The position numbers and the translations under genes were made by a program. DNA of 61,553 nt, the filler included. It is 6 parts of 6 records of this genome, joined end to end, with 100 filler letters (N's around TTAATTAATTAA, not from the genome) between each part and the next. Parts side by side here need not be neighbours in the genome. Positions count along the whole stretch, not along the records: positions 1 to 19,978 come from SRR2962707_2388; 5 more parts are not named here. One strand, written 5' to 3'. Below the pieces are notes generated by a model that was given only the letters and a program-made list of their open reading frames with translations, ran no database searches and was not told the DNA's origin. The stretch's first letter is position 1, and each line of letters begins with the position of its first letter. Shown here piece by piece: positions 1 to 20,078 of this stretch.

Positions 1-134
1 GTACAAATAAACAGGGCTTTCTATTGACCCGATGAAAAAATATTAACACAGTAAGTAATTACATAGCAAGTTATATTTAAAGCTTTAGAGGGCAAAGCAC
101 TCAGTCGTAATATATTAAAGAGAAAATAGAACTA

Positions 135-506: not shown

Positions 507-534
507 TGCGTAGTCCTCTATGAGTTGCGCTATG

Positions 535-565
535 AAAAAAGAAAGCCCCTTATAAAGGGGCTTTC
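535..565 (-). terminator. Intrinsic terminator of ssb
   Basis: GAAAGCCCCT/AGGGGCTTTC stem followed by a T-run on the minus strand, just past the ssb stop. Confidence 0.8.
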
Positions 566-596
566 AAGTTAACTCTACACGTTATGAATTCAGATA

Positions 597-1310
597 TCAG
601 AACGGGATATCATCATCGAAGTCATCAAAGTTTGGCGCTTGCTGAGGTTTTGGCTCAGGCGCTGGTGCACGCTGAGGAGCCGGCTGCTGTGGCGCACGTT
701 GCTGTGGCGCTGCTTGAGCAGGCGCTTGCTGTGGCGCATTACCCCAGCTACCAAAAGATTGAGGCTGAGCTTGCGGAGCCGCTTGTTGTGGTGCTTGCTG
801 AGCGGGCGCTTGGTTGTAGCCACCTTGTGGTTGATTAAAACCTTGCTGTGGCGCTTGTTGTGCCGGTGCTTGGTTATAACCACCTTGTTGTGGTGCGTTG
901 TTGCCGTAGCCACCTTGAGCAGATGAATCATAGCCGCCTTGCTGGCCGCCATTATTGTTATCGCCACGACCGTCAAGTAACTGCATTTCGTTCGCAACAA
1001 TCTCAGTGGTGTAACGCTTAATGCCGTCTTTTTCCCACTCACGTGTACGCAAAGAACCTTCTACGTAGACTTTTGAGCCTTTCTTGATGAAGTCACCTGC
1101 AATTTGACCCAAACGGAAATTACCGCGGTCCATAAAAGCCACTCGGTGCCACTCGGTACGTTCTTGCATTTGTCCGGTTTGCTTATCACGCCAGCTTTCT
1201 GATGTTGCTAGGTTAACGTTTGCAACCGCTGCACCCGATGGCATAAAACGCACTTCGGCATCATTGCCTGCGTTACCGATTAGGATAACTTTGTTAATTC
1301 CACGTGCCAT
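597..1310 (-). CDS. ssb: Single-stranded DNA-binding protein
   Basis: [15 protein letters not shown]-fold start with GGAG SD; acidic tip DFDDDIPF; start moved from 1322 to the ATG at 1310. Confidence 0.97.
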
Positions 1311-1343
1311 GACGCTCTCCAACTAAATAATTCATTGTCATCT

Positions 1344-2702
1344 TTAAAGATTCACTTGCGGCGCAAGGCGCTGCAATGTCTCTTTATCGAGTATTTTTTT
1401 GTCTACTTTAAGATAAGCGGTACGCTCATCTATAAAAATCTGCATGTCTTCCACCCCTTCCACATGGGAGAGCTGGTTTGCGAACGCAGTTATCGCTGCG
1501 TCATCGCCTTCTGGCAGGCTAAACGCCACGCTGCTCAGTTGTCGTATTGTAGGCTGGAATAAGCAGACTATCGACCACAAAAGCAATGCCAAACCAACGA
1601 CGAGGAATAAACTGTTGCTGGAGAAGTGCTGTAATAGCCAGCCACCACCAATACCACCAATGAAGGAACCTAAAAATTGATGAGTAGAGAAAACCCCCAT
1701 GGCCGTGCCGCGATAGCCAACAGGTGCTAACTTACTAATCAGAGAAGGTAAGGTTGCTTCTAAGGTATTGAAGCCAACAAAATAAGCCCATAGCAATAGC
1801 CCAAAAGCCCATAAGTATGGTGCCCATTGTAGCAACAAAGCACTGAAACCTAGTAATGCAACGACGCCAAAAACGACTTCTTTCATTTTGCCTTTGGCTT
1901 CTGCAATAATCACCAATGGTACCATACCCACAAAAGCAAAACCCATAATCGCTAGATACAACCAGCTATGGTGCGCCAATGGCAAACCGAATCGAGTGAT
2001 TAATAAATGCGGCACAGTCACAAACAAGGCTGTCAGGCTGGCGTGTAGCAAGAGCACGCTAATATTCAAAAAGCGTAACTTGCTGTCTTTGATAACTTTT
2101 CCTAGAGCGACCGCGCTTGGTGTCGTATCTCGTCGGAAGGTATGCTGTACCACATTTGGCACCATAAAGAGCACCAAAGCGATGCCTAAAAAAGAAAAGC
2201 CAAACGATAAATAGAAAAGCCCAGACAAGCCAATCAGGTCAAATATCCAAGGACCTAATACCAGTGACAGCATAAAGGAAGCGCCAATACTAATGCCGAC
2301 GGTCGCCATTGCTTTGGTTCGATTTTGCTCTCGCGTCACATCACTCAGAAGCGCCATTAAGGTACTAGCAATCGCCCCAGCGCCCTGTACGGCTCGACCA
2401 ATAATCAATACGCTAATATCGGTGGCGTTGGCACAAATCAAACTGCCTAAAGCAAACAGTAATAGACCAATGACAATCACACGTTTACGACCAATACGAT
2501 CGGACCACATGCCCATCGGAATCTGTAGACACGCTTGAGTAAAACCGTAAATGCCAATCGCAGTACCGATTAAGGCTGCATCGGATCCGGTTAAGCCATC
2601 CGCGGCAACACTAATCACTGGCATAATAAGAAAAAGGCCTAGCATTCTAAACAAGTAGACTGATGCTAAGGCGAGAACAGAACGACGTTCGAGTACATCC
2701 AT
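1344..2702 (-). CDS. MFS transporter (YajR-like)
   Basis: About 12 hydrophobic segments, motif A GMWSDRIGRKRV, C-terminal soluble domain; typical uvrA-MFS-ssb synteny; start 2702 or 2723. Confidence 0.85.
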   Translation of the reverse strand: MDVLERRSVLALASVYLFRMLGLFLIMPVISVAADGLTGSDAALIGTAIGIYGFTQACLQIPMGMWSDRIGRKRVIVIGLLLFALGSLICANATDISVLIIGRAVQGAGAIASTLMALLSDVTREQNRTKAMATVGISIGASFMLSLVLGPWIFDLIGLSGLFYLSFGFSFLGIALVLFMVPNVVQHTFRRDTTPSAVALGKVIKDSKLRFLNISVLLLHASLTALFVTVPHLLITRFGLPLAHHSWLYLAIMGFAFVGMVPLVIIAEAKGKMKEVVFGVVALLGFSALLLQWAPYLWAFGLLLWAYFVGFNTLEATLPSLISKLAPVGYRGTAMGVFSTHQFLGSFIGGIGGGWLLQHFSSNSLFLVVGLALLLWSIVCLFQPTIRQLSSVAFSLPEGDDAAITAFANQLSHVEGVEDMQIFIDERTAYLKVDKKILDKETLQRLAPQVNL

Positions 2703-2788
2703 AAGGAGATTACAACCACTCAACTTAGGGTTTAAAAAAGAAAGATGCCTATTTTACTTAAAATACCGTTGAAGCTCTATTTCAAGTA

Positions 2789-2804
2789 CTGTAAAAATAG
2801 ACAG
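2789..2804. promoter_or_regulatory. LexA (SOS) box upstream of uvrA
   Basis: CTGTAAAAATAGACAG matches CTG-N10-CAG (CTGT-N8-ACAG), 56 nt before the uvrA ATG. Confidence 0.85.
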
Positions 2805-2860
2805 TTATTCTACCGACAACGATGTAAAACTTCTGTTGCTAAAACACTATTTGGAGACAC

Positions 2861-5683
2861 ATGGATACCATCACCATACGCGGAGCTCGCACCCACAATT
2901 TAAAAAATGTGGACTTAGACATCCCCAGAGACAAACTCGTGGTGATCACAGGTTTATCAGGTTCGGGAAAGTCATCACTTGCTTTCGACACCTTATATGC
3001 AGAGGGTCAACGACGTTATGTAGAATCCCTCTCTACGTACGCTCGTCAATTCTTATCCATGATGGAAAAGCCAGATATAGACCATATTGAAGGGCTTTCT
3101 CCCGCGATCTCCATAGAACAGAAATCCACGTCACATAACCCACGCTCAACGGTGGGTACGATCACAGAAATCTATGACTACCTACGTCTACTGTTTGCGC
3201 GAGCTGGCCAACCACGCTGTCCTGATCATGGCGAGCCTCTTGAGGCGCAGACCATATCACAAATGGTGGATAAGATAATCTCCCTCCCTGAGGAAACTAA
3301 AATGATGTTGCTTGCACCGATCGTGAAAGATCGTAAAGGCGAGCACCTTCATATTCTTAGTGACTTGTTATCTAAGGGATTTATTCGCGCACGTATTGAC
3401 GGAATTGTGGTCGATTTAGACGATGCACCCACTTTAGAAAAAAATAAGAAACACACTATTGAGGTGGTTATTGACCGTTTTAAGGTTCGTAACGACCTAC
3501 AACTTCGCTTGGCAGAGTCCTTTGAAACCTGTCTTGCGCTCTCTGACGGCATTGCCAAAGTCATCAATATGGACGACGACAAAGACGTTCATATTTTCTC
3601 CAGTAAATTTGCTTGCCCTGTTTGTGGATACAGTTTAACGGAATTGGAACCTCGTCTATTTTCTTTTAACAACCCAAATGGCGCCTGCCAGACTTGTGAT
3701 GGTTTAGGCACGCACCAACTGTTCGATCCTGACCGAATCATCCAAGACGATACATTGACGCTGGCTGAAGGCGCTATTCGAGGTTGGGGACGACGTAGTA
3801 TTTTCTACTATCAACAACTGACCGCTCTCGCGAAACATTATGGGTTTGATGTCGAGGCGAAATTTAAAGACATCCCGGTCGAGTTCCAAAACAAGATTCT
3901 AAAAGGGTCAGGAAAAGACAAGATAGACTTTGTCTACATCAATGAACGCGGCGACAAGATGATACGCTCACATGCGTTTGAGGGGGTTTTGCCTAACCTT
4001 CAACGCCGCTACCACGAAACAGAGTCTGATAGCGTCAGAGAAGATCTTTCCCAATACATCAGCACTCAATCCTGTCCAGAGTGTCATGGTTCGCGACTTA
4101 ACCGCTCAGCAAGAAATGTCTTTATTAATGAGCAAACCTTGCCAGAGGTAGTGACCTACCCGATTGCAGAATGTCTTAGCTACTTTGAAGCGCTTGACCT
4201 ACCCGGTGCCCGTGGCGAAATCGCTTCCAAAATTTTGAAAGAGATTCGTGACCGACTTACCTTCTTAGTCAATGTTGGCTTAGATTATTTAACCCTAGAC
4301 CGCAAAGCAGATTCACTCTCTGGTGGAGAGGCTCAGCGTATCCGTCTCGCTAGCCAGATTGGCGCAGGCCTAGTTGGCGTTATGTATATTCTTGATGAAC
4401 CCTCTATAGGACTTCACCAACGAGATAATGAGCGTTTGATTGAAACTTTAACGCGCTTACGGGACCTCGGTAATACCGTCATTGTTGTGGAGCACGATGA
4501 AGATGCCATTCGAGTCGCTGACTTTGTGGTTGATATCGGCCCTGGCGCAGGTATTCACGGCGGCGAAGTCATTGTCAGCGGCACTCCGCAAGACGTAATG
4601 GATTGTAAGGAATCTATTACTGGGCAATTTTTGACGGGCAAACGCAAGATTGAGATTCCTGAAATAAGAAACAAAGCAAAAGATGGCCACTCGCTGAACC
4701 TGATTGGCGCAACAGGAAACAACTTGAACAGCGTAGACCTCAAGATTCCTGTTGGCATCATGACTTGCGTTACCGGCGTCTCTGGCTCAGGAAAATCGAC
4801 CTTAATTAATGGCACTCTGTATCCGTTGGCCTCAACGGCCTTAAATGGAGCCACCACACTCAAAGCAGCACCTCATGAGCGCATTGAAGGATTAGATCTA
4901 TTCGATAAGTGCGTAGACATAAACCAAAGCCCAATTGGCAGAACGCCACGCTCTAACCCAGCAACCTATACGGGTATATTTACCCCAATGCGTGAGCTGT
5001 TCGCCGCCACTCAGGAAGCGCGTTCTCGTGGTTATAAGCCAGGCCGGTTTAGTTTTAATGTTAAAGGCGGACGCTGTGAAGCTTGCCAAGGTGACGGGGT
5101 TATTAAGGTCGAAATGCACTTTTTACCGGATGTCTATGTGCCTTGTGATGTTTGTAAAGGTAAGCGCTATAACCGCGAAACATTAGAAATACACTATAAA
5201 GGCAAAAATATTCATCAGTGTTTAGACATGACCATTGAAGACGCCAGAGACTTCTTTGATGCCGTGCCATCCATTGCCCGTAAGCTGCAAACCTTGATCG
5301 ATGTAGGCTTGGGTTATATCAAACTGGGTCAAGCGGCAACGACGCTGTCTGGCGGTGAAGCACAACGGGTGAAGCTAGCCAAAGAGTTGTCTAAGCGCGA
5401 TACCGGGCAGACACTGTATATTCTTGATGAGCCGACGACTGGCTTACATTTTGCAGATATTGAGCAACTTCTAAAGGTACTGCATCGCTTACGAGACCAC
5501 GGCAATACCGTTGTCGTCATTGAACATAACCTAGACGTGATAAAAACCGCTGATTGGGTTGTTGACCTTGGTCCAGAAGGTGGCAGTGGTGGAGGCTATA
5601 TTATCGCTGAAGGGACGCCGGAAGAGGTGGCTGAATCCAGCAACTCGCATACCGGTCGCTTCTTAAAAGGGATGTTGGCTTAA
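2861..5683 (+). CDS. uvrA: Excinuclease ABC subunit A
   Basis: 940 aa; two ABC modules ([26 protein letters not shown] x2) and CxxC zinc fingers. Confidence 0.99.
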
Positions 5684-5725
5684 TACTAAATGGCATGGGG
5701 TGCGCTAACTGGCGCCCTATTTCAT

Positions 5726-5751
5726 AAAAAGCGGCTAAGCCGCTTTTTTTT
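5726..5751 (+). terminator. Intrinsic terminator after uvrA (bidirectional type)
   Basis: AAAAAGCGGC-TAA-GCCGCTTTTTTTT. Confidence 0.8.
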
Positions 5752-5769
5752 GAGACAAATTTTAGGCAC

Positions 5770-5802
5770 AAAAAAAGCCGAGCTTATTAGCTCGGCTTTT
5801 TT
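5770..5802 (-). terminator. Intrinsic terminator after rplQ (end of alpha operon)
   Basis: A7-GCCGAGCT-TATT-AGCTCGGC-T6 hairpin. Confidence 0.85.
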
Positions 5803-5816
5803 GTTACAAACTGATG

Positions 5817-6194
5817 TTACTCAGCTGCTTCCGCAACTGGTCTGTCGACCAATTCAACGTAAGCCATAGGTGCGTTATCACCTGCACGGAAGCCACATTT
5901 TAAAATGCGAACATAACCGCCAGGACGAGCTTGGTAACGAGGACCAAGTTCTGAGAACAATTTACCTACTGCATCTTTGCTACGAGTACGAGCAAAGGCA
6001 AGGCGACGATTCGCAACGGAATCTTCTTTCGCCAATGTGATCAAAGGCTCTGCAACACGGCGAAGTTCTTTGGCTTTCGGCAACGTAGTTTTAATAACTT
6101 CGTGTTCGAACAAAGAAGCAGCCATATTCTTGAACATCGCTTTGCGATGAGAGCTAGTACGGTTTAAGTGACGTCCACTCTTACGATGACGCAT
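5817..6194 (-). CDS. rplQ: 50S ribosomal protein L17
   Basis: [20 protein letters not shown]. Confidence 0.99.
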
Positions 6195-6236
6195 TTTACA
6201 TTCCTTACCAAACTACGGTGGTCAGGGAACAATGAC

Positions 6237-7241
6237 CTAGCGAGCTAGAACTTTGCTATCGTCTTTCAAACTAGCTGGTGGCCAGTTTTCTAGACGCATT
6301 CCCAAAGACAAACCACGCTGTGCTAAAACATCTTTGATTTCAGTTAACGACTTTTTACCTAGGTTAGGCGTCTTAAGAAGCTCAACCTCAGTACGTTGAA
6401 TCAAATCACCGATGTAATAAATGTTCTCTGCTTTCAAACAGTTAGCACTGCGAACGGTCAACTCAAGATCATCAACCGGGCGTAGCAAAATTGGATCAAT
6501 CTCATCCTCTTCTTCAACTACAGGCGCTTCACTCTCACTTTCAAGAGCAACAAAGACTGCGATCTGTTGTTGTAGAATAGTCGCTGCGCGACGGATAGCT
6601 TCTTCAGGGTCGATAGTACCGTTTGACTCGATATCTAAAACTAGCTTATCAAGGTCAGTACGTTGCTCTACACGAGCATTATCAACACTGTAGGCTACAC
6701 GGCGAACAGGGCTGAATGAGGCATCCAGTTGCAAGCGACCGATAGGACGAGTCTCATCATCGCTAGCAACACGAGCGTCAGCAGGCTCATAACCACGACC
6801 ACGAGCCACTTTGATCTGCATAGAAAGTTCAGCAGTATCGTCCAAGTGTGCAATTACATGGTCAGGGTTAGCGATCTCTGCATCAGCAACTAACTGGATA
6901 TCACCAGCCGTTACGATACCAGGACCTTTTTTACTTAGAGTAAGAGTTGCTTCATCTTGCCCGTGTAGAGCGATCGCAACTCCTTTCAGGTTAAGAAGAA
7001 TTTCAATGACATCTTCTTTAACCCCTTCAATTGCGCTGTATTCATGCAATACACCGTCGATTTCAACTTCAACAATTGCACAACCAGGCATTGAAGACAG
7101 TAGAATTCGGCGCAACGCATTACCTAAAGTGTGACCAAAACCACGTTCTAGTGGTTGAAGCGTCACTTTAGCTCGCGTTTTACCCAATTCCTGAACTTCA
7201 ATGTTGCGTGGGGTTAACAATTCGCTCACTGAACGCTGCAT
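6237..7241 (-). CDS. rpoA: RNA polymerase alpha subunit
   Basis: [15 protein letters not shown]; alpha-[13 protein letters not shown]. Confidence 0.99.
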
Positions 7242-7274
7242 AGATCCACCTATTTCTTAATCCTAATCACCGAC

Positions 7275-7895
7275 TTACTTAGAGTAAAGTTCGACAATTA
7301 GGTTCTCATTAATTTCAGCTGATAAATCGGCACGTTCTGGAGCAGCTTTATAAGTTGCTTCCAGTTTAGTTGTATCAACTTCGATCCAATGGATCGACGT
7401 ACGATTTTTAGATAGCTCTAGTGCGCTTTGAATACGCAATTGCTTCTTAGCTTTTTCACGGATAGACACAACATCACCAGCTTTAACTTGGTAAGATGGA
7501 ATGTTAACCGTTGCGCCGTTTACTAGAATGCCTTTATGGCCTACTAGTTGGCGAGCTTCCGCACGTGTAGAACCAAAACCTGCGCGGTATACAACGTTAT
7601 CTAAACGAGATTCTAAAAGTTGCAGAAGGTTTTCACCAGTAGCACCCTTTAGACGAGCAGCAGATTTGTAGTAGTTACGGAATTGTTTTTCAAGAACACC
7701 GTACATACGACGTACTTTTTGTTTCTCACGTAATTGTAAGCCGTAATCAGAAAGACGTCCGCGACGTGCGCCATGCACACCAGGAACAGTTTCTGCTTTA
7801 CATTTCGACTCAAGAGCGCGTGAACCGCTCTTCAATTGCAAGTCGGTACCTTCACGACGAGACAACTTACAAGTTGGACCTATATAACGAGCCAT
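7275..7895 (-). CDS. rpsD: 30S ribosomal protein S4
   Basis: MARYIGP...[11 protein letters not shown]...VELYSK. Confidence 0.99.
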
Positions 7896-7911
7896 GTATC
7901 TGTCTCCTCAG

Positions 7912-8304
7912 TTAAACGCGACGTTTCTTAGGTGGACGGCAACCGTTGTGCGGGATTGGCGTCACATCTGTGATGTTATTAATACGCAAGCCCAATGCAT
8001 TCAATGCACGAACTGCGGACTCACGACCAGGACCAGGGCCCTTGATCATTACGTCGACGTTTTTAAGGCCAAATTCTTGTGCGACAGTACCGGCACGTTC
8101 CGCTGCTACTTGAGCTGCGAATGGTGTACTTTTACGAGATCCGCGAAAACCAGAACCACCTGCCGTAGCCCAAGACAAAGCATTGCCCTGGCGGTCGGTG
8201 ATAGTCACGATCGTATTGTTGAATGAAGCGTGTACATGAGCAACACCATCAACAACCGTCTTTTTGACTTTTTTCTTGGTATTGCGCGTAGCTGGCTTAG
8301 CCAT
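7912..8304 (-). CDS. rpsK: 30S ribosomal protein S11
   Basis: HASFNNTIV...[13 protein letters not shown]. Confidence 0.99.
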
Positions 8305-8369
8305 ATTGCACTTTCCTATTTAATGCTCAGCTCTAGTGGACTTAGCAACTAGAGCGAAACGCGTTTATA

Positions 8370-8726
8370 TTACTTACGAATAGGCTTACGAGGGCCTTTA
8401 CGTGTACGAGCGTTCGTTTTGGTACGTTGACCACGAACAGGTAGACTGCGGCGATGGCGAATACCACGATTACAGCCAAGATCCATCAAGCGTTTGATAG
8501 ACATGCTGACTTCACGGCGTAGATCACCTTCTACAGTATACTTAGCAACTTCGCCACGAAGTTCATCAAGGATATCATCACTCAAAGAACCAATTTTCGT
8601 AGTTTCTGCAACACCTGACGCGGCGCAAATTGCGCGCGAACGTGTGCGACCAATTCCGAAGATGTAAGTCAGAGAAATGACCGCATGTTTATTGTCAGGA
8701 ATATTGACACCGGCTATACGAGCCAT
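8370..8726 (-). CDS. rpsM: 30S ribosomal protein S13
   Basis: [10 protein letters not shown]...[14 protein letters not shown]. Confidence 0.99.
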
Positions 8727-8789
8727 TCAATTCACTCCGTTGTTATGGACGATATCTAAATCATCACTTTACTTTCATGAGGGCGGCTG

Positions 8790-8818
8790 ATTATGCCTAT
8801 CTTTAGGCGAAAAATCAA
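8790..8818 (-). promoter_or_regulatory. Sigma70-like alpha-operon promoter
   Basis: Minus strand TTGATT-17 nt-CATAAT followed by GC-rich CAGCCGCC, upstream of rpsM. Confidence 0.7.
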
Positions 8819-8850
8819 CCACCCTACCCTATCATCGAACGAACTTGCAA

Positions 8851-8964
8851 TTAACCTTGACGCTGTTTGTGTCGAGGCTCAGTGCAAATCACTCGAACTG
8901 CACCGTTACGACGAACGATTTTACAGTTACGACAGATTTTCTTTACAGATGCACGTACTTTCAT
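8851..8964 (-). CDS. rpmJ: 50S ribosomal protein L36 (zinc-binding type); below the ORF-track size cutoff
   Basis: Manual translation [43 protein letters not shown]; lies between secY and rpsM. Confidence 0.97.
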
Positions 8965-8982
8965 GTTCAACTCCAACCTATG

Positions 8983-10314
8983 CTAACGCATTAGGCCATT
9001 TGGACCATAACCAGTCAGATTAGATTTCTTCATTAACGACTCGTATTGATGACTCATTAAGTGACTTTGCACTTGCGACATAAAGTCCATGACAACCACC
9101 ACTACGATCAACATAGAGGTACCGCCAAAGTAGAATGGAACATTCCACGCAACAACAAAGAACTGAGGCATCAGCGACACTAAAGTGATGTATAAAGCAC
9201 CAAATAGAGTCAAACGAGTCATTACACCATCAATATATCGAGCTGTATGATCGCCTGGACGAATACCCGGCAAAAAAGCACCGGATTTTTTTAAGTTATC
9301 TGCCACATCTTTAGGGTTGAACACCAGCGCTGTATAGAAGAAGCAAAAGAAAACAATTGCGATTGCAAACAACAGCACATATAGAGGTTGTCCAGGAGCT
9401 AGAGCCAAAGAGATATTTTGCAACCATTCCATACCTTGCCCTTGACCAAACCATTGGCCAATAGACGCTGGAAACAGAAGGATACTAGAAGCGAAGATTG
9501 GTGGGATAACACCCGCCATATTCACTTTAAGAGGCAAATGACTCTTTTGTGCGGCAAACACCTTATTACCTTGCTGACGCTTCGCGTAATTGACTGTAAT
9601 TCTACGTTGACCACGTTCGATGAAAACAACGAGCGCGATTGTCGCAACAGCTAATACACCAATAACCAACAGAGCAAGAATATTTATATCGCCTTGACGA
9701 GCCGATTCAAATGAACGACCTAGAGCAGATGGCAAACCAGCAACGATACCGGAGAAGATGATAATGGAAATACCATTACCAATTCCTTTTTCAGTCACTT
9801 GCTCACCTAGCCACATCAAGAACACCGTACCAGCAACGAGAGTCACAACGGCGACGCCGTAGAACTCAATACCATTACTGAACGAAATGCCCTGACTCGC
9901 TAAGCCGACTGCCATAGAGGCAGACTGAACAAGCGCTAACAGTACAGTGCCGTAGCGAGTGTATTGAGTAATCTTACGACGACCCGCCTCACCCTCTTTC
10001 TTCAACTGTTCTAGCTGCGGACTCACAACCGTTAATAACTGCATAATAATAGAGGCAGAAATATAGGGCAGAATCCCAAGCGCAAAAATACTCATACGCT
10101 CGAGTGCGCCCCCTGAGAATACGTTAAATAAACTCAGAATTGTGCCTTCATTTTGATTAAACAGGGCAGACAATCTATCTGGGTTAATACCCGGAACAGG
10201 GATGTGTGCACCAATTCGGTATACAATAATTGCTAAGAATACAAAGCGGATACGCGACCAAAGTTCGCCTAATCCATTTTGTACACCAGCTGGTAGTGAG
10301 CCACGCTTTGCCAT
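8983..10314 (-). CDS. secY: Preprotein translocase subunit SecY
   Basis: [30 protein letters not shown]. Confidence 0.99.
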
Positions 10315-10749
10315 TTATTCCTCGACTTTTCCGCCGGCAGCTTCAATAGCAGCACGAGCACCTTTAGTCACTTTAAGACCACGAACGGTAACGGCTTTGT
10401 CGATAGAACCAGACAAAATTACACGTGCTGTCTTAATTTGATGACCAAGAATGTCGGCGCTTTTAAGAGCAGCCAAATCTACAACTTCAGCATTTACAGC
10501 AGCAAGTTCGTTTAAACGAACTTCAGCAACATACTTTGCCTGACGTGAAGTAAAACCAAATTTTGGCAGACGACGCTGCAATGGCATTTGACCGCCTTCA
10601 AAACCAGGTTTTACTGAGCCACCAGAGCGAGACTTAAGACCTTTATGGCCACGTCCGCCTGTTTTGCCCAAGCCGCTACCAATACCGCGACCGACACGTT
10701 TCGGAGCATGTTTGCTACCTTCGCCAGGACGAAGCGTATTTAAGAACAT
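10315..10749 (-). CDS. rplO: 50S ribosomal protein L15
   Basis: RVGRGIGSG...FEGGQMPL. Confidence 0.99.
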
Positions 10750-10750
10750 G

Positions 10751-10936
10751 TTATTCTCCTACTACTTTAACCATGTAATAAACTTTATTAACCATACCAC
10801 GTACTGCTGGAGTATCTTCCAGCTCACGTGTTTGGCCAACTTTACGCAAACCCAAGCCTTTAACTGTTTCACGGTGCTTTGGAAGACGACCGATCGGGCT
10901 ACGGGTTAGTTGAACTGTGATGGTATTATTCGCCAT
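10751..10936 (-). CDS. rpmD: 50S ribosomal protein L30
   Basis: RSPIGR...GLGLRK...DTPAVRGM. Confidence 0.98.
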
Positions 10937-10942
10937 AACACA

Positions 10943-11443
10943 TTACCCCAAAATTTGATCGACTGACTTACCGCGTTTAGCCGCGATTTGCTCAGGTGCT
11001 TTCATATCTTGCAAACCTTTGATCGTAGCGCGAACTACGTTTACTGGGTTTGTAGATCCGTAACATTTTGCCAATACGTTGTGTACGCCTGCAATTTCAA
11101 GAACTGCACGCATAGCACCACCGGCAATGATACCAGTACCTTGAGAAGCTGGTTGCATGTAAACTTTAGAAGCTCCATGAACTGCTTTAACTGGATACTG
11201 TAAAGTATCACCGTCAAGTTTAACTGAAACCATGTTGCGACGAGCTTGTTCCATCGCTTTTTGGATAGCTTGAGGGACTTCACGCGCTTTACCGCGACCG
11301 AAGCCAACCTTACCATTTCCATCACCAACGACTGTCAAAGCAGTGAAAGAGAAGATACGACCACCCTTCACAACTTTAGCAACGCGGTTTACTTGAACTA
11401 GCTTCTCTTGGAGGTCGCTAGTTTGTTGATCATTAACTGCCAT
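10943..11443 (-). CDS. rpsE: 30S ribosomal protein S5
   Basis: [16 protein letters not shown]. Confidence 0.99.
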
Positions 11444-11454
11444 TTGCTACCCCT

Positions 11455-11805
11455 TTAGAACTCTAGACCGGCTTCACGTGCTGCGTCAGCAAGAGCTTGA
11501 ACGCGGCCATGGTATTTGAAGCCAGAACGGTCAAAAGCGACCGAAGTGACACCTGCTTCTTTAGCGCGTGTAGCAATCAAAGTACCGACTTGTTGAGCCG
11601 CTGCCTTGTTGCCAGTCGCTGTAGCACGTAGAGTTTCTTCCAGAGTAGAAGCACTAGCTAGTACTTTGCTACCGCAAGGAGAAATCACTTGAGCATACAT
11701 ATGACGTGGCGTGCGATGTACAGTAAGACGATTCGCACCTAGCTCACGAATATGTAGGCGCGCACGGCGTGCACGACGAATTCGAGATTGTTTCTTAGTG
11801 TTCAT
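11455..11805 (-). CDS. rplR: 50S ribosomal protein L18
   Basis: [26 protein letters not shown]. Confidence 0.99.
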
Positions 11806-11815
11806 GAATGCTTAC

Positions 11816-12349
11816 CTACTTCTTCTTAGCTTCTTTACGACGAACATTTTCGTCAGCATAGCGAACACCTTTGCCTTTATATGGCTCTGGTGGACGGAAA
11901 CCGCGAACTTCTGCAGCGACTTGACCAACGGCTTGCTTATCAATGCCTCTGATCACGACTTCTGTCTGTGAAGCACATTCAGCTGTAATGCCTTCAGGTA
12001 GTTCATAATCTACTGGGTGTGAAAAACCCAAAGATAGGTTAAGTACTTTGCCTTTAAGCGCAGCACGGTAACCAACACCTTGAAGAAGCAATCTTTTCTC
12101 AAAACCTTGGCTAACACCAACAACCATGTTGTTAACCAAAGCGCGAGTAGTACCAGCTAAGGCACGGCTTTGTTTTGCACTATCGCGGGCAGCGAAAGTG
12201 ATAACATTTTCTTCTTTAGACACAATAACGCTTGTGTGAACAGTAAACTCTAATGAACCTTTGCCGCCTTTTACAACAACATTTTGGCCATTTAGGGTTA
12301 AATCTACACCACTAGGAAGCGTCACGGGACTATTAGCAACTCGAGACAT
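11816..12349 (-). CDS. rplF: 50S ribosomal protein L6
   Basis: [13 protein letters not shown]. Confidence 0.99.
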
Positions 12350-12357
12350 ACTAACTC

Positions 12358-12750
12358 CTAGAATACAGTGCAGATTACTTCGCCACCAATACCAGCAGCG
12401 CGAGCTGCTCGGTCTGTCATCACACCTTTAGAGGTAGAGATGATCGCAACACCAAGGCCAGCTTCTACTTTAGGTAAAGCAGATGTGCCTTTGTATTGAC
12501 GCAAGCTTGGGCGAGATGCGCGTTTAATTTGTTCAATAACCGGCTTACCTTCGTAGTATTTCAACTCGATAGTAAGGGTCGGTTTAATCGCTTCGTCTAC
12601 AGAAAAGTCACCTACGTAACCTTCTTCGCGTAGAACTGCAGCGACAGATGCCTTCATTTTTGATGAAGGCATGCTCACAGAGGTCTTTGCAGCCATCTGT
12701 GCATTACGAATACGTGTGAACATATCCGCAAGGGTATCTTGCATACTCAT
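12358..12750 (-). CDS. rpsH: 30S ribosomal protein S8
   Basis: [23 protein letters not shown] places the start at 12750 rather than 12807. Confidence 0.98.
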
Positions 12751-12798
12751 TAAAGAGCTCCTAATTAAAAACCATTGTGCAGCAAATAGAGCTCGCGC

Positions 12799-12827
12799 AT
12801 AGTACACAGCAGCGGGGAGAATGTCCA
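12799..12827 (-). promoter_or_regulatory. Candidate internal sigma70 promoter upstream of rpsH
   Basis: Minus strand TGGACA-17 nt-TACTAT, then GC-rich discriminator GCGCG. Confidence 0.65.
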
Positions 12828-12878
12828 GTATTTAGACACCCCACCCACTGCCATGTATTATGATAGCGCTCTACTTGC

Positions 12879-13184
12879 TTACCAACTAGCTTTCTTCAAG
12901 CCTGGTACATCACCGCGCATAGCTGCTTCACGCAATTTGATTCGAGACAAACCAAATTTACGATAAACACCATGTGGGCGACCCGTTATTTGACAACGGT
13001 TACGCTGGCGAGAAGAAGATGAATCGCGTGGAAGCGCTTGTAATTTAAGCGTTGCTTCCCACTTTTCATCGTCCGATGCATTAACGTCGCTAATGATCGC
13101 TTTTAGAGCAGCACGCTTTTCAGCGAACTTAGCTACTAATTTAGTACGTTTTGCTTCGCGCTGAATCATTGAGATCTTTGCCAT
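12879..13184 (-). CDS. rpsN: 30S ribosomal protein S14 (101-aa non-zinc type)
   Basis: [12 protein letters not shown]...PGLKKASW. Confidence 0.99.
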
Positions 13185-13196
13185 GATTCCTACCTC

Positions 13197-13736
13197 TTAT
13201 TTCTTGAAAGGGAAACTAAAGGCGGCTAGCAAAGCACGACCTTCTTCGTCGGTACGAGCAGTCGTTGTAATGGTGATGTCCATACCACGTACACGATCCA
13301 CTTTATCGTAATCGATTTCAGGGAAGATGATCTGCTCTTTAACACCCATGCTATAGTTACCACGACCGTCGAAAGACTTAGGATTAAGTCCACGGAAGTC
13401 ACGGATACGTGGAATAGCAACATCAACCAAACGGTCAAAGAAATCCCACATACGCTCACCACGTAGCGTTACTTTACAACCGATCGGGTAACCGTCACGG
13501 ATTTTAAAGCCTGCTACTGATTTACGCGCCTTAGTCACTACAACTTTCTGGCCGCTAAGTGCTTCTAGATCGTTTACCGCATGCTCAAGAAGTTTCTTGT
13601 CTGCGATAGCTTCACCAACACCCATGTTCAATGTGATTTTAGTGATTTTCGGCACTTCCATCACATTCTTGTATTCAAACTCTTCAGTAAGAGCTGATAC
13701 AACATTATCTTTATAAACTTGCTTAAGTCTCGCCAT
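13197..13736 (-). CDS. rplE: 50S ribosomal protein L5
   Basis: KITLNMGVG...PRIRDFRG...FPEIDYDK. Confidence 0.99.
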
Positions 13737-13753
13737 GGCTATAATTCTCGCTC

Positions 13754-14071
13754 TTAGGCGTCGATCGCTTCACTGTTTGATTTAAAGATACGTACTTTAG
13801 TACCGTCTTCATTCAATTTAAAGCCGACGCGATCCGCTTTGTCAGTAGCCTTGTTGTAGATGGCTACATTAGAAACCTGGATAGGTGCTTCTTTTTCAAC
13901 GATGCCGCCAGTTGAACCCTTCATAGGGTTTGGTTTTTCGTGTTTCTTGATCATATTGATACCAGAAACAAGAACTCGGCTTTCGTCTACTACCTTAACA
14001 ACAGTACCGCGTTTGCCTTTATCTTTACCAGCAATCACGATTACTTCGTCGTCACGTTTGATTTTACGCAT
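13754..14071 (-). CDS. rplX: 50S ribosomal protein L24
   Basis: KOW motif [15 protein letters not shown]. Confidence 0.99.
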
Positions 14072-14088
14072 AATGTCCCCTCTCCCTC

Positions 14089-14457
14089 TTACAGCACTTC
14101 AGGTGCAAGAGAAACAATTTTCATGAATTGCTCAGTTCGCAACTCACGTGTTACAGGGCCAAAGATACGAGTACCAATAGGCTGTCCTGAAGCATTCAAT
14201 AGAACCGCTGAGTTTACATCAAAACGGATTACAGAACCATCAGGACGACGAACACCTTTCTTAGTTCTAACGACAACTGCGTTAAGAACCTGCCCTTTTT
14301 TAACACGACCACGAGGGATCGCTTCTTTCACTGTGACCTTAATAATGTCACCGATAGCAGCATAACGACGGTGTGAGCCACCCAGTACTTTAATACACTG
14401 AACACGCTTTGCGCCGCTGTTATCTGCAACATCAAGCATCGATTCTGTTTGAATCAT
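14089..14457 (-). CDS. rplN: 50S ribosomal protein L14
   Basis: [10 protein letters not shown]...SLAPEVL. Confidence 0.99.
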
Positions 14458-14508
14458 TTCTGCTCTCCAATCAAGTTAGATAACAAGTCTCACGAGGGAA
14501 AAAGCAGC

Positions 14509-14769
14509 TTATAGAGCTGCAGTTTTCTCAATAACTTGAACCAGGTTCCAAGTCTTAGACTTAGAGTAAGGACGTGTTTCTACGACCTTAACCGTATCAC
14601 CAATCTGGCACTCATTGTTTTCATCGTGAGCGTGTAGTTTAGTTGAACGACGTACGTACTTACCGTACAACGGGTGTTTCTCCGTACGTTCAACTAGTAC
14701 TGTAATGGTTTTATCCATTTTGTCGCTGACTACTTTACCAGTAGCTGTACGCGCTTTTGTTTCTGCCAT
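14509..14769 (-). CDS. rpsQ: 30S ribosomal protein S17
   Basis: [11 protein letters not shown]...ETRPYSKSK; start at MAETK (14769). Confidence 0.98.
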
Positions 14770-14770
14770 C

Positions 14771-14962
14771 TTAGTTACCTGCCTTATCATTTAGCACGGT
14801 TTTAACACGTGCGATATTGCGGCGAACTTGCGGAAGCAAATGAGTTTGCGTCAGCTGACCAGTTGCTTTCTGCATGCGCAATGTAAATTGCTCACGTAGA
14901 AGCTCAACCAAGGTCGCTTGTAGCTCTGCTACAGACTTTTCTTGCAGTTCTTTTGCTATCAT
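14771..14962 (-). CDS. rpmC: 50S ribosomal protein L29
   Basis: [15 protein letters not shown]...[10 protein letters not shown]. Confidence 0.98.
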
Positions 14963-15376
14963 CTACATCACCGTACGCGTTACGAAAGTTGTGGACAAAG
15001 GAAGTTTAGCAGCAGCTAAAGCAAACGCTTCGCGAGCTAGCTGTTCTGAAACGCCCTCAACTTCATAAAGCATCTTACCAGGTTGAATCTGTGCAACCCA
15101 GTATTCTACATTACCCTTACCTTTACCCTGACGAACCTCTAGAGGTTTCTGAGTAATCGGCTTATCAGGGAACACACGAATCCAAATCTTACCACCACGT
15201 TTGATGTGACGAGTCATTGCACGACGCGCCGCCTCAATTTGACGAGCAGTAATACGACCACGTTCAGTGGACTTTAATCCGAATTCACCAAAGCTAACTT
15301 GGTTACCGCGAAGGGCAAGACCGCGGTTACGGCCTTTCATCATCTTGCGGAACTTAGTACGTTTCGGTTGTAACAT
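14963..15376 (-). CDS. rplP: 50S ribosomal protein L16
   Basis: [11 protein letters not shown]...IWIRVFPD. Confidence 0.99.
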
Positions 15377-15386
15377 GACTTACCCC

Positions 15387-16067
15387 CTACTTAGACTTCT
15401 TCTTTTGTGCGCCTTTGTCAGCTCGCACTTGCTCAATACCGCCCAAGATTTCGCCTTTGAAGATCCACACTTTAACACCAATGATGCCGTAAGTTGTGTT
15501 TGCTTCATAAGTAGCGTAGTCAATGTCAGCGCGTAGAGTGTGTAGAGGCACGCGGCCTTCACGGTACCACTCAGCACGTGCAATTTCAGCACCGCCTAGA
15601 CGACCACTTACCTGAACCTTGATACCTTTCGCGCCTGCACGCATAGCGTTCTGTACTGCACGCTTCATCGCACGACGGAACATAACACGACGCTCTAATT
15701 GGCTAGCAATATTTTGCGCAACCAATTTCGCATCCATTTCAGGCTTACGAATTTCTTCGATGTTGATGTGAACAGGAACGCCCATCATCTCAGAAACTGC
15801 ATTACGTAGTTTCTCAACATCTTCGCCTTTCTTACCAATTACAATACCTGGACGGGCAGTGTAAATAGTAATGCGAGCTGTTTGAGCAGGACGCTGAATC
15901 TCGATACGAGAAACAGAAGCCTGAACCAATTTTTTCTCCAAGAACTTACGAACCTGAAGATCGTTTAATAACAGCTTAGAATAGTTCTGATTGTTCGCAT
16001 ACCAAGTAGAAGTATGATCTTTAACAATCCCTAAGCGTATTCCAGTTGGATGAACCTTCTGACCCAT
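15387..16067 (-). CDS. rpsC: 30S ribosomal protein S3
   Basis: [13 protein letters not shown]...[13 protein letters not shown]. Confidence 0.99.
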
Positions 16068-16081
16068 TGGGTTTCTCCTAA

Positions 16082-16414
16082 TTAGTCAGCGACTTTAACT
16101 GTAATATGGCAACCGCGTTTAAGAATACGGTCAGCACGGCCTTTAGCACGTGGCTTAATACGTTTCAGAGTCATAGCCTCATCAACATACGCCGTAGATA
16201 CACGCAAGTCATCAACATCAGCACCTTCGTTATGCTCAGCATTTGCTACAGCAGACTCTAGTACTTTTTTGACAATTACTGCCGCCTTCTTAGGACTGAA
16301 CGCTAAGATGTTCAGTGCTTCGCTAACAGATTTGCCGCGGATTTGATCTACAACCAAACGGGCCTTCTGCGCTGAGAGGCGAGCACCTTTTAATGAAGCG
16401 CTTACTTCACTCAT
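16082..16414 (-). CDS. rplV: 50S ribosomal protein L22
   Basis: SAQKARLV...PRAKGRA. Confidence 0.99.
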
Positions 16415-16428
16415 ATTAATACTCCTAA

Positions 16429-16704
16429 TTACCGTTTGGCTTTCTTGTCCGCAGCGTGACCACGATATGTACGGGTCGGAGCGAACTCACCCAATTTATG
16501 ACCGACCATGTCTTCAGTTACAAGAACTGGAACATGTTGGCGACCATTATGGACAGCGATAGTCAACCCTACAAAATCAGGGAAGATAGTAGAACGGCGT
16601 GACCAAGTCTTAATTGGACGGCGTTCATTTTTCTCTACCGCAGCCTCTACCTTTTTCAACAAATGAAGGTCGATAAAAGGACCTTTTTTTAGTGAACGTG
16701 GCAC
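16429..16704 (-). CDS. rpsS: 30S ribosomal protein S19
   Basis: RSLKKGPF...[12 protein letters not shown] start. Confidence 0.99.
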
Positions 16705-16719
16705 AGTCGTTTCCTCTTA

Positions 16720-17544
16720 TTACTTAGTACGGCGACGTACAATAAGTTTATCAGTACGCTTGTTGCTGCGCGTTTTGTAACCTTTAGTAGGCACACCCCA
16801 TGGTGTAACTGGGTGACGACCACCTTTGCTACGACCTTCACCACCACCATGTGGGTGATCAACTGGGTTCATCGCTGCACCGCGGACGGTAGGACGAACA
16901 CCACGCCAACGCGTAGCACCAGCTTTACCAAGAACTCGCAAGCTATGCTCAGAGTTTGATACTTCACCTAAAGTAGCGCGACATTCCGTCAAGACTTTAC
17001 GCATTTCACCAGAACGTAGGCGAAGAGTAACGTAACGACCTTCACGAGCAACTAGCTGAGCAGAAGCACCGGCTGAACGTGCAACTTGTGCACCTTTACC
17101 TGGCTTAAGCTCGATACAGTGAACGGTACTACCAACTGGGATATTTTGCAGAGGCAAAGTATTACCCGCTTTGATAGGCGCATCTGCACCACTAAAAACA
17201 ACATTGCCAGCTACCATACCTTTAGAAGCGATAATGTAACGACGCTCACCATCAGCATATCTAACCAATGCAATATTTGCAGAACGGTTTGGATCATATT
17301 CCAAACGCTCAACTACCGCAGAAATTCCGTCTTTGTTACGACGAAAATCAACCATACGGTAATGCTGCTTATGACCACCACCTACGTGACGCGTAGTGAT
17401 GCGTCCGTTATTGTTACGTCCACCTGATTTGCTCTTTTTAGAAAGCAAAGGTGCATATGGCGCGCCTTTGTGCAAATCGTTGTTGGTAACTTTAACAACG
17501 TGACGACGGCCTGCAGACGTTGGCTTACTTTTTACAACAGCCAT
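16720..17544 (-). CDS. rplB: 50S ribosomal protein L2
   Basis: EYDPNRSA...[13 protein letters not shown]. Confidence 0.99.
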
Positions 17545-17558
17545 TGACCTATCTCCCC

Positions 17559-17855
17559 TTATTCAGCGACCATGAAGTCAATTTCTTGGCCTTCAGCCAA
17601 ACGTACGTACGCTTTTTTCACGTCACTACGCTTGCCTAGACCACGAACTGTACGCTTAGTTTTACCTTTTTGGTTCAACGTGCGAACAGACTCAACTTTG
17701 ACTTCAAAAAGCGCTTCGATAGCTTTTTTGATTTCAGGTTTCGTTGCATCACCAGTAACACGAAAAACGTACTGACCGTTTCCTTCAGAAACGATAGTTG
17801 CTTTTTCGGAAATGTGTGGACCCAACAGAACTTTATAAATGCGTTCGCCGATCAT
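17559..17855 (-). CDS. rplW: 50S ribosomal protein L23
   Basis: PHISEK...ATKPEIK...KKAYV. Confidence 0.99.
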
Positions 17856-18457
17856 GCTAGTGTCTCCTCAACTTGTTTCAGAGCACCAACTGTCACCAAC
17901 ACTTTGTCGTAAGCAATCAAGCTAACAGGGTCGATAGACGCTGCATCACGCACATCTACGTTTGGAATGTTGCGAGCTGCTAAAAACAGGTTATCGTCCA
18001 ATTCATGGGAGATAATCAAAGCATTCTCAACATTCAATTCTGTCATTTTGGCTTTGAAGAGCTTAGTTTTTGGAGCTTCCAATTTAAGTTCTTCAACAAC
18101 AACAAGGCGGTCTTGACGTACTAATTCAGACCAGATGGTGCGCATTGCTGCACGATACATCTTCTTGTTTACTTTCTGAGAGTGATCTTGTGGTTTCGCA
18201 GCGAAGGTAACACCACCAGAGCGCCATAGAGGGCTACGGATAGTACCTGCACGTGCACGACCAGAACCTTTTTGTTTCCAAGGTTTGCGTCCGCCACCGG
18301 CCACTTCAGAGCGTGTTTTCTGTGCGCGTGATCCTTGACGAGCGCCAGCCAAGTAAGCCGTAACTACTTGGTGTACTAGTGCTTCGTTGTATTCACGAGC
18401 AAAGGCTACTTCAGAAACTTCGATAGTTCCTTCTGCGCCTGTAAGATTCAAGTTCAT
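17852..18457 (-). CDS. rplD: 50S ribosomal protein L4
   Basis: [14 protein letters not shown]. Confidence 0.99.
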
Positions 18458-18469
18458 TGTCTACCCCTC

Positions 18470-19108
18470 TTAGCGAGCTTTAACAGCTGATTGAAGAATA
18501 ACATCACCGTTTACAGCGCCAGGTACCGCACCTTTCACAAGGATAAGGTTACGTTCTGTATCAACACGAACTACTTCTAAAGACTGAGTAGTTACTTGTG
18601 CTGCGCCCATGTGTCCTGCCATCTTCTTGCCTTTCCAAACACGACCAGGTGTTTGACATTGGCCGATAGAACCAGGTGCACGGTGAGACAATGAGTTACC
18701 ATGTGTAGCGTCTTGCATACTGAAATTATGACGCTTGATGGCACCTTGAAAACCTTTACCTTTAGATTGACCAGTTACATCAACCATAGAGATAGATTCG
18801 AAATCAGCTACAGTCAGCTCATCACCAACATTGATTTCTTTTTCATCACCTGCCAGGCGGAACTCCCACAAACCACGACCTGCTTCAACTGTCGCTTTTG
18901 CAAAGTGACCTGCAGCAGCTTTAGTGACGCGGCTCGAACGGCGAGTACCAACAGTAACTTGAACAGCTTGGTAGCCGTCAGTTTCTGTCGTTTTCACCTG
19001 AGTAACGCGGTTCGGTTCAACCTCGATGACGGTTACTGGCACGGATACACCATCTTCATTGAAGATACGTGTCATACCGGCTTTGCGTCCGACTAATTGA
19101 ATAGTCAT
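18470..19108 (-). CDS. rplC: 50S ribosomal protein L3
   Basis: KAGMTR...SKGKGFQG...GKKMAGHMG. Confidence 0.99.
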
Positions 19109-19127
19109 TTTTTACCTCATTTGCCAG

Positions 19128-19181
19128 TTGTGTACGGGGCTATCACCCGCTACGGCTGGTCATTCCAGACCATTCCACTAA
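19128..19181 (-). promoter_or_regulatory. 23S rRNA H18-H20-like structured mRNA element upstream of rplC (candidate L4/L24-binding operator)
   Basis: mRNA reads UUAGUGGAAUGGUCUGGAAUGACCAGCCGUAGCGGGUGAUAGCCCCGUACACAA, colinear with 23S rRNA domain I (~nt 293-346); ends about 10 nt before the rplC SD. Confidence 0.75.
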
Positions 19182-19236
19182 TGTGCATAAGCCGACTGAT
19201 AACCAGTCGGTTCTCGCACCCCAAAACTTTGAGTTA

Positions 19237-19548
19237 TTAACCCAAAGAGATTTGTACTTCCACGCCTGCCGCAAGATCTAGTTTCATTAGAGCATCAACT
19301 GTTTTTTCAGTTGGTTCAACAATGTCTAGAACACGTTTGTGTGTACGGATTTCATACTGATCACGCGCATCTTTGTTTACGTGTGGAGAAATCAATACTG
19401 TGTAACGCTCTTTGCGAGTAGGAAGTGGAATCGGTCCACGTACTTGCGCACCTGTGCGTTTCGCTGTGTCCACAATTTCTTGTGTTGAAGCATCGATCAG
19501 ACGATGATCAAACGCTTTCAAACGAATACGGATTTTTTGGCTTTGCAT
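19237..19548 (-). CDS. rpsJ: 30S ribosomal protein S10
   Basis: [14 protein letters not shown]...GPIPLPT; GGAG SD places the start at 19548. Confidence 0.99.
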
Positions 19549-19624
19549 TTCCAACTCCAAATACAATGTTTTGATAACTTAACTGTACATTTGTTAAGCT
19601 AACATCCTTTTTTAAGGACGGCGA

Positions 19625-19653
19625 ATATTAGCTATTCGAAAACTGGTTGTCAA
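19625..19653 (-). promoter_or_regulatory. Sigma70 S10-operon promoter
   Basis: Minus strand TTGACA-17 nt-TAATAT followed by TCGCCG. Confidence 0.8.
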
Positions 19654-19690
19654 GTAACCAATTCTGAAAGAATAAAATTTGCCAACAAAT

Positions 19691-19723
19691 AAAAAAGGCC
19701 ACTCGAAAATCGAGCGGCCTTTT
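19691..19723 (-). terminator. Intrinsic terminator of tuf
   Basis: Minus strand AAAAGGCCGCTCGA-TTT-TCGAGTGGCCTTTTTT. Confidence 0.85.
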
Positions 19724-19755
19724 CCTAGCTCTTAACAATTAATTCGAAGAATCAA

Positions 19756-19978
<223 letters not shown>

Positions 19979-20078
19979 NNNNNNNNNNNNNNNNNNNNNN
20001 NNNNNNNNNNNNNNNNNNNNNNTTAATTAATTAANNNNNNNNNNNNNNNNNNNNNNNNNNNNNNNNNNNNNNNNNNNN
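19979..20078. other. Artificial contig linker 1
   Basis: N44-TTAATTAATTAA-N44 (stops in all six frames); GC content and taxon change across it. Confidence 0.98.

Follow-up and report, generated by a model that had tools for sequence, protein, structure and literature searches.

A near copy of the 23S rRNA H18-H19-H20 junction ahead of rplC as a putative uL4-responsive operator of the S10 operon in the order that includes Pseudomonas

Ribosomal protein L4 (uL4) is the established autoregulator of the S10 operon in E. coli. The E. coli-type leader of this operon is described as conserved in enterics, Vibrio and Haemophilus and as not conserved in Pseudomonas (PMC3616713, PMC10931766), and the latter source, a 2024 review, restates that Pseudomonas is without the leader. 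The control of the S10 operon outside the enteric, Vibrio and Pasteurella lineages is the question raised by the locus analysed here, in which the spacer between rpsJ and rplC carries a structured element that resembles 23S rRNA. The element offers a concrete and testable answer to this question, and the answer would cover an extensive order, with Pseudomonas, Halomonas and numerous marine genera among its members. The locus lies in a stretch of DNA of 61,553 nt (61.5 kb), analysed over its whole length and hereafter referred to as the window. The genes and sites that frame the spacer are as follows.

19625-19653, minus strand: promoter-like site TTGACA-17-TAATAT, located 5' of rpsJ (consensus scan)
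19237-19548, minus strand: rpsJ (S10), the 5' neighbour of the spacer (ORF list; Pfam Ribosomal_S10, E 4.3e-36)
19109-19236, minus strand: the rpsJ-rplC spacer, 128 nt (ORF coordinates and sequence)
18470-19108, minus strand: rplC (uL3), with which the proposed control would begin (ORF list and Pfam Ribosomal_L3)
17852-18457, minus strand: rplD (uL4), encoding the proposed ligand, the second gene after the element (Pfam Ribosomal_L4, E 9.3e-69)
13754-14071, minus strand: rplX (uL24), encoding the alternative or second candidate ligand, in the spc gene block (Pfam ribosomal_L24 and KOW)

The ORF order and the Pfam matches place rplD two genes downstream of the element, as a sequence-only reading of the window had proposed, and rplX about 5 kb downstream of it on the same strand. 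The intergenic gaps in the series rplC-rplD-rplW-rplB are 12, -4 and 14 nt by the ORF coordinates, rplD and rplW overlapping by 4 nt, and such tight spacing allows translational coupling among these genes. The spacers of the Enterobacterales are 29 nt long, in agreement with the length of about 30 nt that had been quoted for E. coli. The promoter-like site listed above is the only match of its kind on the sense strand between the tuf terminator (19691-19725) and rplC, and consensus and simple scans of the spacer (19109-19236) returned no promoter-like and no terminator-like sites. As there is no promoter-like site inside the spacer, rpsJ and rplC are probably co-transcribed; rpsJ would thus probably share the rplC transcript and yet sit 5' of the proposed operator. 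In four RNA libraries, each of a different study (public runs, Logan contigs), contigs bridge rpsJ, the spacer and rplC. The bridging lends weak support to co-transcription, since such contigs prove no single transcript; nor do they reveal transcript ends, strand or level, and they accordingly allow no processing site to be claimed.

Four features of the spacer are of direct concern here.

19183-19219, minus strand: accessory hairpin P0, 4 nt 5' of the junction, its sequence not conserved (MFE folds)
19128-19181, minus strand: core element, mimic of the 23S H18-H19-H20 three-way junction (Rfam LSU alignment, covariance model R1 and covariation)
19121-19129, minus strand: linker AACUGGCAA between stem P1 of the element and the Shine-Dalgarno sequence (sequence comparison)
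19115-19118, minus strand: Shine-Dalgarno GAGG of rplC (sequence)

The presence of a 23S-like copy ahead of rplC is confirmed. Read on the mRNA strand from 19181 to 19128, the window carries exactly the string that the sequence-only reading had given, and a gapless comparison with E. coli 23S rRNA yields the stated 43 identities in 54 positions. The E. coli sequence had been quoted with correct letters and with a position off by one, the segment being nt 292-345 of rrlH (NC_000913.3). Of the 11 differences, seven are confined to four base pairs in which pairing is preserved, five of the seven being in the H19-like stem, which bears out the remark that differences in H19 keep the pairing. All other 54-mers of the window, 121,470 on both strands, have a mean identity of 13.6 (sd 3.2) and a best value of 29/54. 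The Rfam search that had been proposed for the spacer region does match H18-H20: LSU_rRNA_bacteria aligns 19130-19178 (minus strand) to model positions 332-380 with 33.4 bits and an E-value of 2.8e-8 (901 nt searched), with every helix of H18-H20 in these positions formed and the posterior probabilities maximal. The score lies below the gathering cut-off of 50 bits for the bacterial LSU family (RF02541) and the match spans 49 of 2925 model positions; for this reason, and in view of its location in an mRNA spacer, the element was rejected as an rRNA gene. The whole window compared with Rfam held no family at gathering score. The element shares with 23S H18-H19-H20 the three-way junction, the junction strands and the H20 hairpin, with an identity of 78-80% over 54 nt, whereas its P1 is a closed 5-bp stem in place of the long H18 and, unlike the ribosomal counterpart, it is part of an mRNA, where a Shine-Dalgarno sequence adjoins it.

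A stretch so similar to rRNA could be a non-functional fragment arising from misassembly, from a chimeric contig or from a decaying insertion, the more so as the window itself is made of concatenated contigs. This we consider extremely improbable. The spacer is 100% identical in the nearest genome compared (G001), which is independent of the window and lacks an assembled 23S, the spacer being its sole LSU match. A complete genome of the same genus (G075) carries the element once, together with eight true 23S copies, and the element of the window is 42/54 identical to this 23S. Nine of the 12 differences are located in five pairs, all of which are still paired: from G075 to the element, a G-C pair becomes A-U in P1, and in the H19-like stem three pairs are exchanged and one becomes a wobble. 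These differences from the genus's own 23S are compensatory, a pattern not to be expected of a degenerating or chimeric fragment. Furthermore, 52 named loci and 106 sampled genomes, some of them complete, have the element at this very position, its core is invariant while its stems covary (see below), and the contigs of the four public RNA runs span it without a single difference within 19128-19181. A misassembled rRNA fragment had been named by the sequence-only reading as one of the findings that would speak against it, and is contradicted by the identical spacer of G001, by the RNA-library contigs and by the family-wide presence.

With regard to the make-up of the window, two N-runs flank a TTAATTAATTAA linker at about 19982-20077, and the element is well inside the first, Marinomonas-like contig. 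The GC content is about 45% in positions 1-20000 and 52-66% beyond the TTAATTAATTAA join, with a jump from 45% to 57% at the join itself. The nearest genome (G001) shares just 25% of the words of the window, in keeping with a Marinomonas-like origin of its first third alone, and the remainder may come from another organism or bin.

The structure of the element, as modelled on rRNA, comprises the following pairings.

19174-19178 with 19130-19134, minus strand: P1
19168-19172 with 19157-19161, minus strand: P2 (H19-like)
C19154-G19150, minus strand: single pair
19146-19148 with 19136-19138, minus strand: P3 (H20-like)

A covariance model (R1) of 54 positions and 14 pairs was built on 31 distinct sequences, its structure being that of the rRNA alignment. 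Stem covariation in orthologous spacers, which had been set as a test of the element, is found: in a MAFFT alignment that was not fitted to the structure, seven of the 14 pairs (all five H19-like pairs and two of P1) have changes on both sides, 96.5% of the cells are paired and none of 500 shuffles reached any of the five measures used. When the partners are slid by 1-3 columns, pairing drops to 19-59%. The model-fitted alignment (36 distinct sequences), which leans toward the structure, has double-sided changes in eight of the 14 pairs. Invariant or nearly invariant positions are the AA after P1, the G-CC-A/G-UAG between P2 and P3, the G before the 3' strand of P1, and GGGU...AGCCCC, including the GGG/CCC of the H20-like stem. 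The H19 loop (UGGAA), conserved in rRNA, is by contrast variable in the mimic and accepts insertions of up to about 30 nt. Most members carry a U-A pair in P1 where rRNA and the window have G.A; the U-A pair would stabilise the stem where the long H18 of the ribosome is missing. The mimic also differs from the rRNA of its own host: two genomes (G047, loci L135 and L136; G021, loci L137 and L138) have G-AUA-C in their 23S at the small junction pair, as E. coli does, and C-AUA-G in the mRNA mimic. The mimic therefore does not follow its own rRNA at this pair, which counts against the operator reading given below; it evolves independently and is not homogenised with the rRNA.

In one locus (L140, G010:C1:2991274-2991436), a hairpin-forming insertion of about 30 nt lies in the H20-like loop while GGGU...AUAGCCCCGUACA is kept, and this natural marker indicates that the 5' half of the loop is dispensable. 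The structure is not decided by thermodynamic (MFE) folding. Folded alone, the 54-mer of the window does not recover P1, and the genuine 23S segment likewise misses it; a Pseudomonas-type 54-mer (L019) does fold into the junction thermodynamically. The folding Z-scores are modest (-1.3 to -2.1), and in the MFE fold of the whole spacer some of the element is paired with codons of rplC.

The distribution of the element was examined in 80 named gammaproteobacterial loci obtained from an RpsJ search, from each of which the rpsJ-rplC spacer was cut out. R1 has a single match in the window and in each of 52 loci out of the 80, invariably on the sense strand of the rpsJ-rplC spacer, and no further match in the 308 kb searched. 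In the window, its single match is the element itself (70.4 bits), with none near rplX. The carriers comprise Marinomonas, Pseudomonas, Stutzerimonas, Halomonadaceae (Salinicola, Vreelandella), Cellvibrionaceae, Spongiibacteraceae, Oleiphilaceae, Porticoccus, Saccharospirillum, Marinobacterium, Amphritea, one Endozoicomonas, HIMB30 and Ca. Pseudomonas adelgestsugas. The motif GCGGGTGAAAGCCCCGTACAC, which the sequence-only reading had given for Pseudomonas, occurs verbatim in the Pseudomonas loci. The other 28 loci are without the element. These include the named members of the Enterobacterales, Vibrionaceae, Pasteurellaceae, Shewanella, Colwellia and Succinatimonas, as well as Endozoicomonas sp. 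G2_1 and an Azotimanducaceae MAG, all with spacers of 11-54 nt; the named Enterobacterales, Vibrio and Pasteurellaceae loci belong to taxa reported to have the E. coli-type leader. Two MAG loci (L053 and L055) lack the element though their spacers are long (178 and 206 nt).

Since R1 also matches genuine 23S copies, its core was extended through the Shine-Dalgarno sequence and 45 nt of rplC to give a second model (R2). Among 151 evenly sampled genomes of the order, 106 have one R2 match each (67-125 bits), and below them come multi-copy 23S segments, at 58 bits or less. Thus, the lineage-wide occurrence, Pseudomonas included, that had been suggested from a single motif holds in both the named loci and the sampled genomes. 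Presence and absence follow families, with about 41 of the 58 sampled families having the element and about 17 being without it; in ten mimic-less genomes of the order that were inspected, the spacers lack the motif and measure 19-79 nt, apart from a single spacer of 246 nt whose content is different. Beyond the order, R2 found the element in none of 149 genomes of a class-wide sample and in none of 137 of a phylum-wide sample, the latter yielding it in 11 of its 14 genomes of the same order. A strict pattern of the core followed by rplC Gly-Met-Thr codons had no true match in 397 genomes of the class outside the order and finds three of the four same-order genomes in its sample. These figures on range come from samples, and divergent or relocated versions could escape the models and the pattern. 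Three class-wide R2 matches near 58.8 bits were rejected, their flanks showing real 23S, as were eight class-wide pattern matches outside the order, which are chance-like and without the rRNA-like core.

Some loci deserve separate mention. The long spacers of L053, L055 and L151 (the last in G053), 178-246 nt in length, share another motif, a GGCUCCGAUAGGGAGCC-like hairpin followed by GGCGA.AGGCG, which may be another leader or a much-diverged version of the element; R1 has no match in L053 and L055. A contig labelled as an uncultured Verrucomicrobiaceae MAG (L068) has a Pseudomonadales-like RpsJ (88% identical) and a mimic of the Spongiibacteraceae type, and is probably mis-binned. The linker AACUGGCAA (19121-19129 in the window) is common to Marinomonas, Marinobacterium, Amphritea and Ca. 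Njordibacter loci (L015, L020 and L050 besides the window) and is missing from the Pseudomonas-type members and from 23S.

The ribosomal site that is copied here has known partners. A minimal fragment of 53 nt is said to be bound by L4 and L24 simultaneously and independently, a finding attributed to Stelzl et al. 2000. According to PMC6426284, nt 281-359 of 23S rRNA form the H18/H19/H20 three-way junction, fold unaided into a Y shape and have uL4 and uL24 as their only specific partners, uL24 having its primary site and uL4 its primary target there; each protein clamps the junction, and binding is cooperative. A 23S fragment with the ribosomal site of uL4 outcompetes the E. coli S10 leader for uL4, according to PMC10931766. 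Conservation speaks for either protein alike, since the rRNA site binds both and the mimic conserves each of the three junction strands. uL4 is favoured over uL24 because rplD is the second gene after the element, because uL4 regulates this very operon in E. coli, where the 23S fragment outcompetes the leader, because the distribution of the mimic among the named loci complements that of the E. coli-type leader, and because no second mimic lies near rplX.

The reading that we consider probable is that the element is a putative rRNA-mimicking translational operator by which free uL4 represses its own operon; we infer the ligand, its binding and the repression from the likeness to the ribosomal site, the conservation and the position. 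uL4 in excess of nascent 23S rRNA would bind and clamp the mRNA junction, and the clamped junction would block the access of the 30S subunit to the Shine-Dalgarno sequence of rplC. Repression of rplC would then spread by translational coupling to rplD-rplW-rplB and the genes beyond, while rpsJ (S10/NusE), located 5' of the element, would escape control. In functional terms the element would take the place of the E. coli-type S10 leader in the order that includes Pseudomonas.

The position of the element agrees with a role in initiation. It abuts the ribosome-binding site of rplC, as had been claimed: the distance from the end of P1 to the rplC ATG has a median of 15 nt (range 12-32, n=52), and an SD-like motif, found in 51 of the 52 loci, starts at a median of 3 nt after P1. 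In the window itself, the core ends 9 nt before GAGG (19118-19115), against the earlier estimate of about 10 nt, and the gap between P1 and GAGG is 11 nt, greater than the family median, so that steric occlusion is less obvious there than in other members. The alignments hold no conserved CCUC-like anti-SD partner inside the element; anti-SD pairing within the element was consequently dropped, and direct occlusion is preferred to a structural switch.

An operator of the same design might have uL24 as its effective ligand, alone or as an obligatory partner of uL4, which, if true, would couple translation from rplC onward to the protein with which 50S assembly starts. We regard this putative variant as unlikely: rplX, though on the same strand, lies about 12 genes away from the element in the spc block, L4 already holds the role of regulator in E. 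coli, and rplX has no mimic of its own nearby. The spc block is regulated by S8 in E. coli, and we know of no r-leader with L24 as its ligand. The case for uL24 comes from the ribosome, where its close contacts with the fragment outnumber those of uL4, it touches both H18-side strands and it binds cooperatively with uL4 (PMC6426284), and from the conservation of all three junction strands in the mimic.

The element could also be a conserved structured RNA whose role is other than feedback, such as stabilising the mRNA, directing RNase processing, or recruiting uL4, uL24 or an assembly factor co-translationally with no repression. Hairpins are a frequent companion of the element: among 46 distinct upstream segments from related loci, 27 fold into one (dG <= -3) whose end lies no more than 6 nt from P1, comparable to P0 in the window, and this is consistent with such a role. 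So is the arrangement in three MAG loci (L048, L064 and L073), in which a terminator-like hairpin with a U-run lies directly 3' of rpsJ and is followed by a second hairpin and then by a mimic with a short H19; in these loci the rplC transcript may be separate or attenuated, and their terminator-like hairpins suggest the spacer as a possible transcript boundary. Processing or stability alone, on the other hand, needs no exact rRNA junction nucleotides across an order, and the tight spacing to the Shine-Dalgarno sequence points to translation initiation. We therefore find a role of this kind quite unlikely and retain repression by free uL4 as the preferred reading.

Operators that mimic rRNA are known for L1 at rplK-rplA, for S8 at the spc operon and for L20 at rpmI-rplT. 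The element shares with these a binding site of an r-protein copied into an mRNA of its own beside the ribosome-binding site, the feedback role being putative here, and differs from them in that the likeness is unusually literal and long, extending over a whole junction that two proteins can co-occupy. It lies in an r-protein mRNA by the ribosome-binding site, resembles an rRNA site, has the gene of the candidate ligand in the same gene string and shows covariation, which are features of the rRNA-mimicking r-leader class. The E. coli-type S10 leader belongs to this operon as well, is likewise presumed to bind uL4 and shares the logic of free L4 competing between domain I of 23S and its own mRNA. 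That leader, however, lies upstream of rpsJ, whereas the element is downstream, flanked by the stop of rpsJ (19237) and the start of rplC (19108). The leader consists of five to six hairpins (HA-HE and HG), including a terminator or intrinsic attenuator, by the account in PMC3616713, whereas the element is a 54-nt three-way junction of 14 pairs with no terminator-like feature. The former acts on both transcription and translation, while the latter would leave S10 unregulated. Membership in the E. coli-type leader was therefore rejected, the location being different and the multi-hairpin architecture and attenuator absent. The sequence-only reading had held the E. coli leader to be unlike rRNA; there is indeed no obvious likeness in sequence, while a structural similarity is implied by the success of the 23S fragment in outcompeting the leader for uL4 (PMC10931766). 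Simple terminator and promoter scans, aimed at an E. coli-like attenuator 5' of rpsJ in the mimic-less genomes, do not discriminate, since the attenuator of the Enterobacter control (L070) escaped them as well.

No Rfam 15 family for the element was found: a cmscan of the site against this release at E <= 10 gave LSU as the only match. Ten related loci had no Rfam match at E <= 0.01, a result that shows only the lack of a strong family match, since the filters are stricter with more sequence. Searches of the open full-text literature found no description of an rpsJ-rplC element for the order, and the element is absent from the accessible text of the motif and leader surveys of 2010, 2013 and 2020, of that of 2024 and of the 2024 review (PMC10931766), although the supplementary tables of the surveys could list it. 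The sole other L4 leader candidate ahead of rplC found in the literature is that of the Archaeoglobi, in Eckert and Weinberg 2020 (PMC7247131). Compared by its description there, it likewise immediately precedes rplC, with rplD following and L4 as the proposed ligand, but it is archaeal and was rated '?' by its authors, and no kinship between the two was detected in sequence or by model. We infer that the element represents a new r-leader class, functionally a putative rRNA-mimicking r-protein operator. If uL4 is indeed the ligand, one protein can gain unrelated operators at different places of one operon.

A further-reaching and more tentative reading, possible but in our estimate not the likely one, is that a piece of a 23S gene was captured in an ancestor of the order and now serves as a sensor of two proteins, uL4 and uL24 acting cooperatively, the likeness to rRNA being due to descent and not to convergence and the sensor replacing the E. 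coli S10 leader. Such a sensor would tie rplC-onward translation to the occupancy of the first 50S assembly site and leave S10/NusE free for its transcription role. The element is also a compact natural model, a 54-nt junction expected to bind the two earliest proteins of 50S assembly, and its natural variants (the free H19 loop, the insertion in the H20 loop and the U-A for G.A in P1) mark which nucleotides matter. Among the members of the family, the 1.8-Mb endosymbiont Ca. Pseudomonas adelgestsugas (L044) retains the element (R1 64 bits) despite its genome reduction, with few substitutions, such as CCAUAAC.
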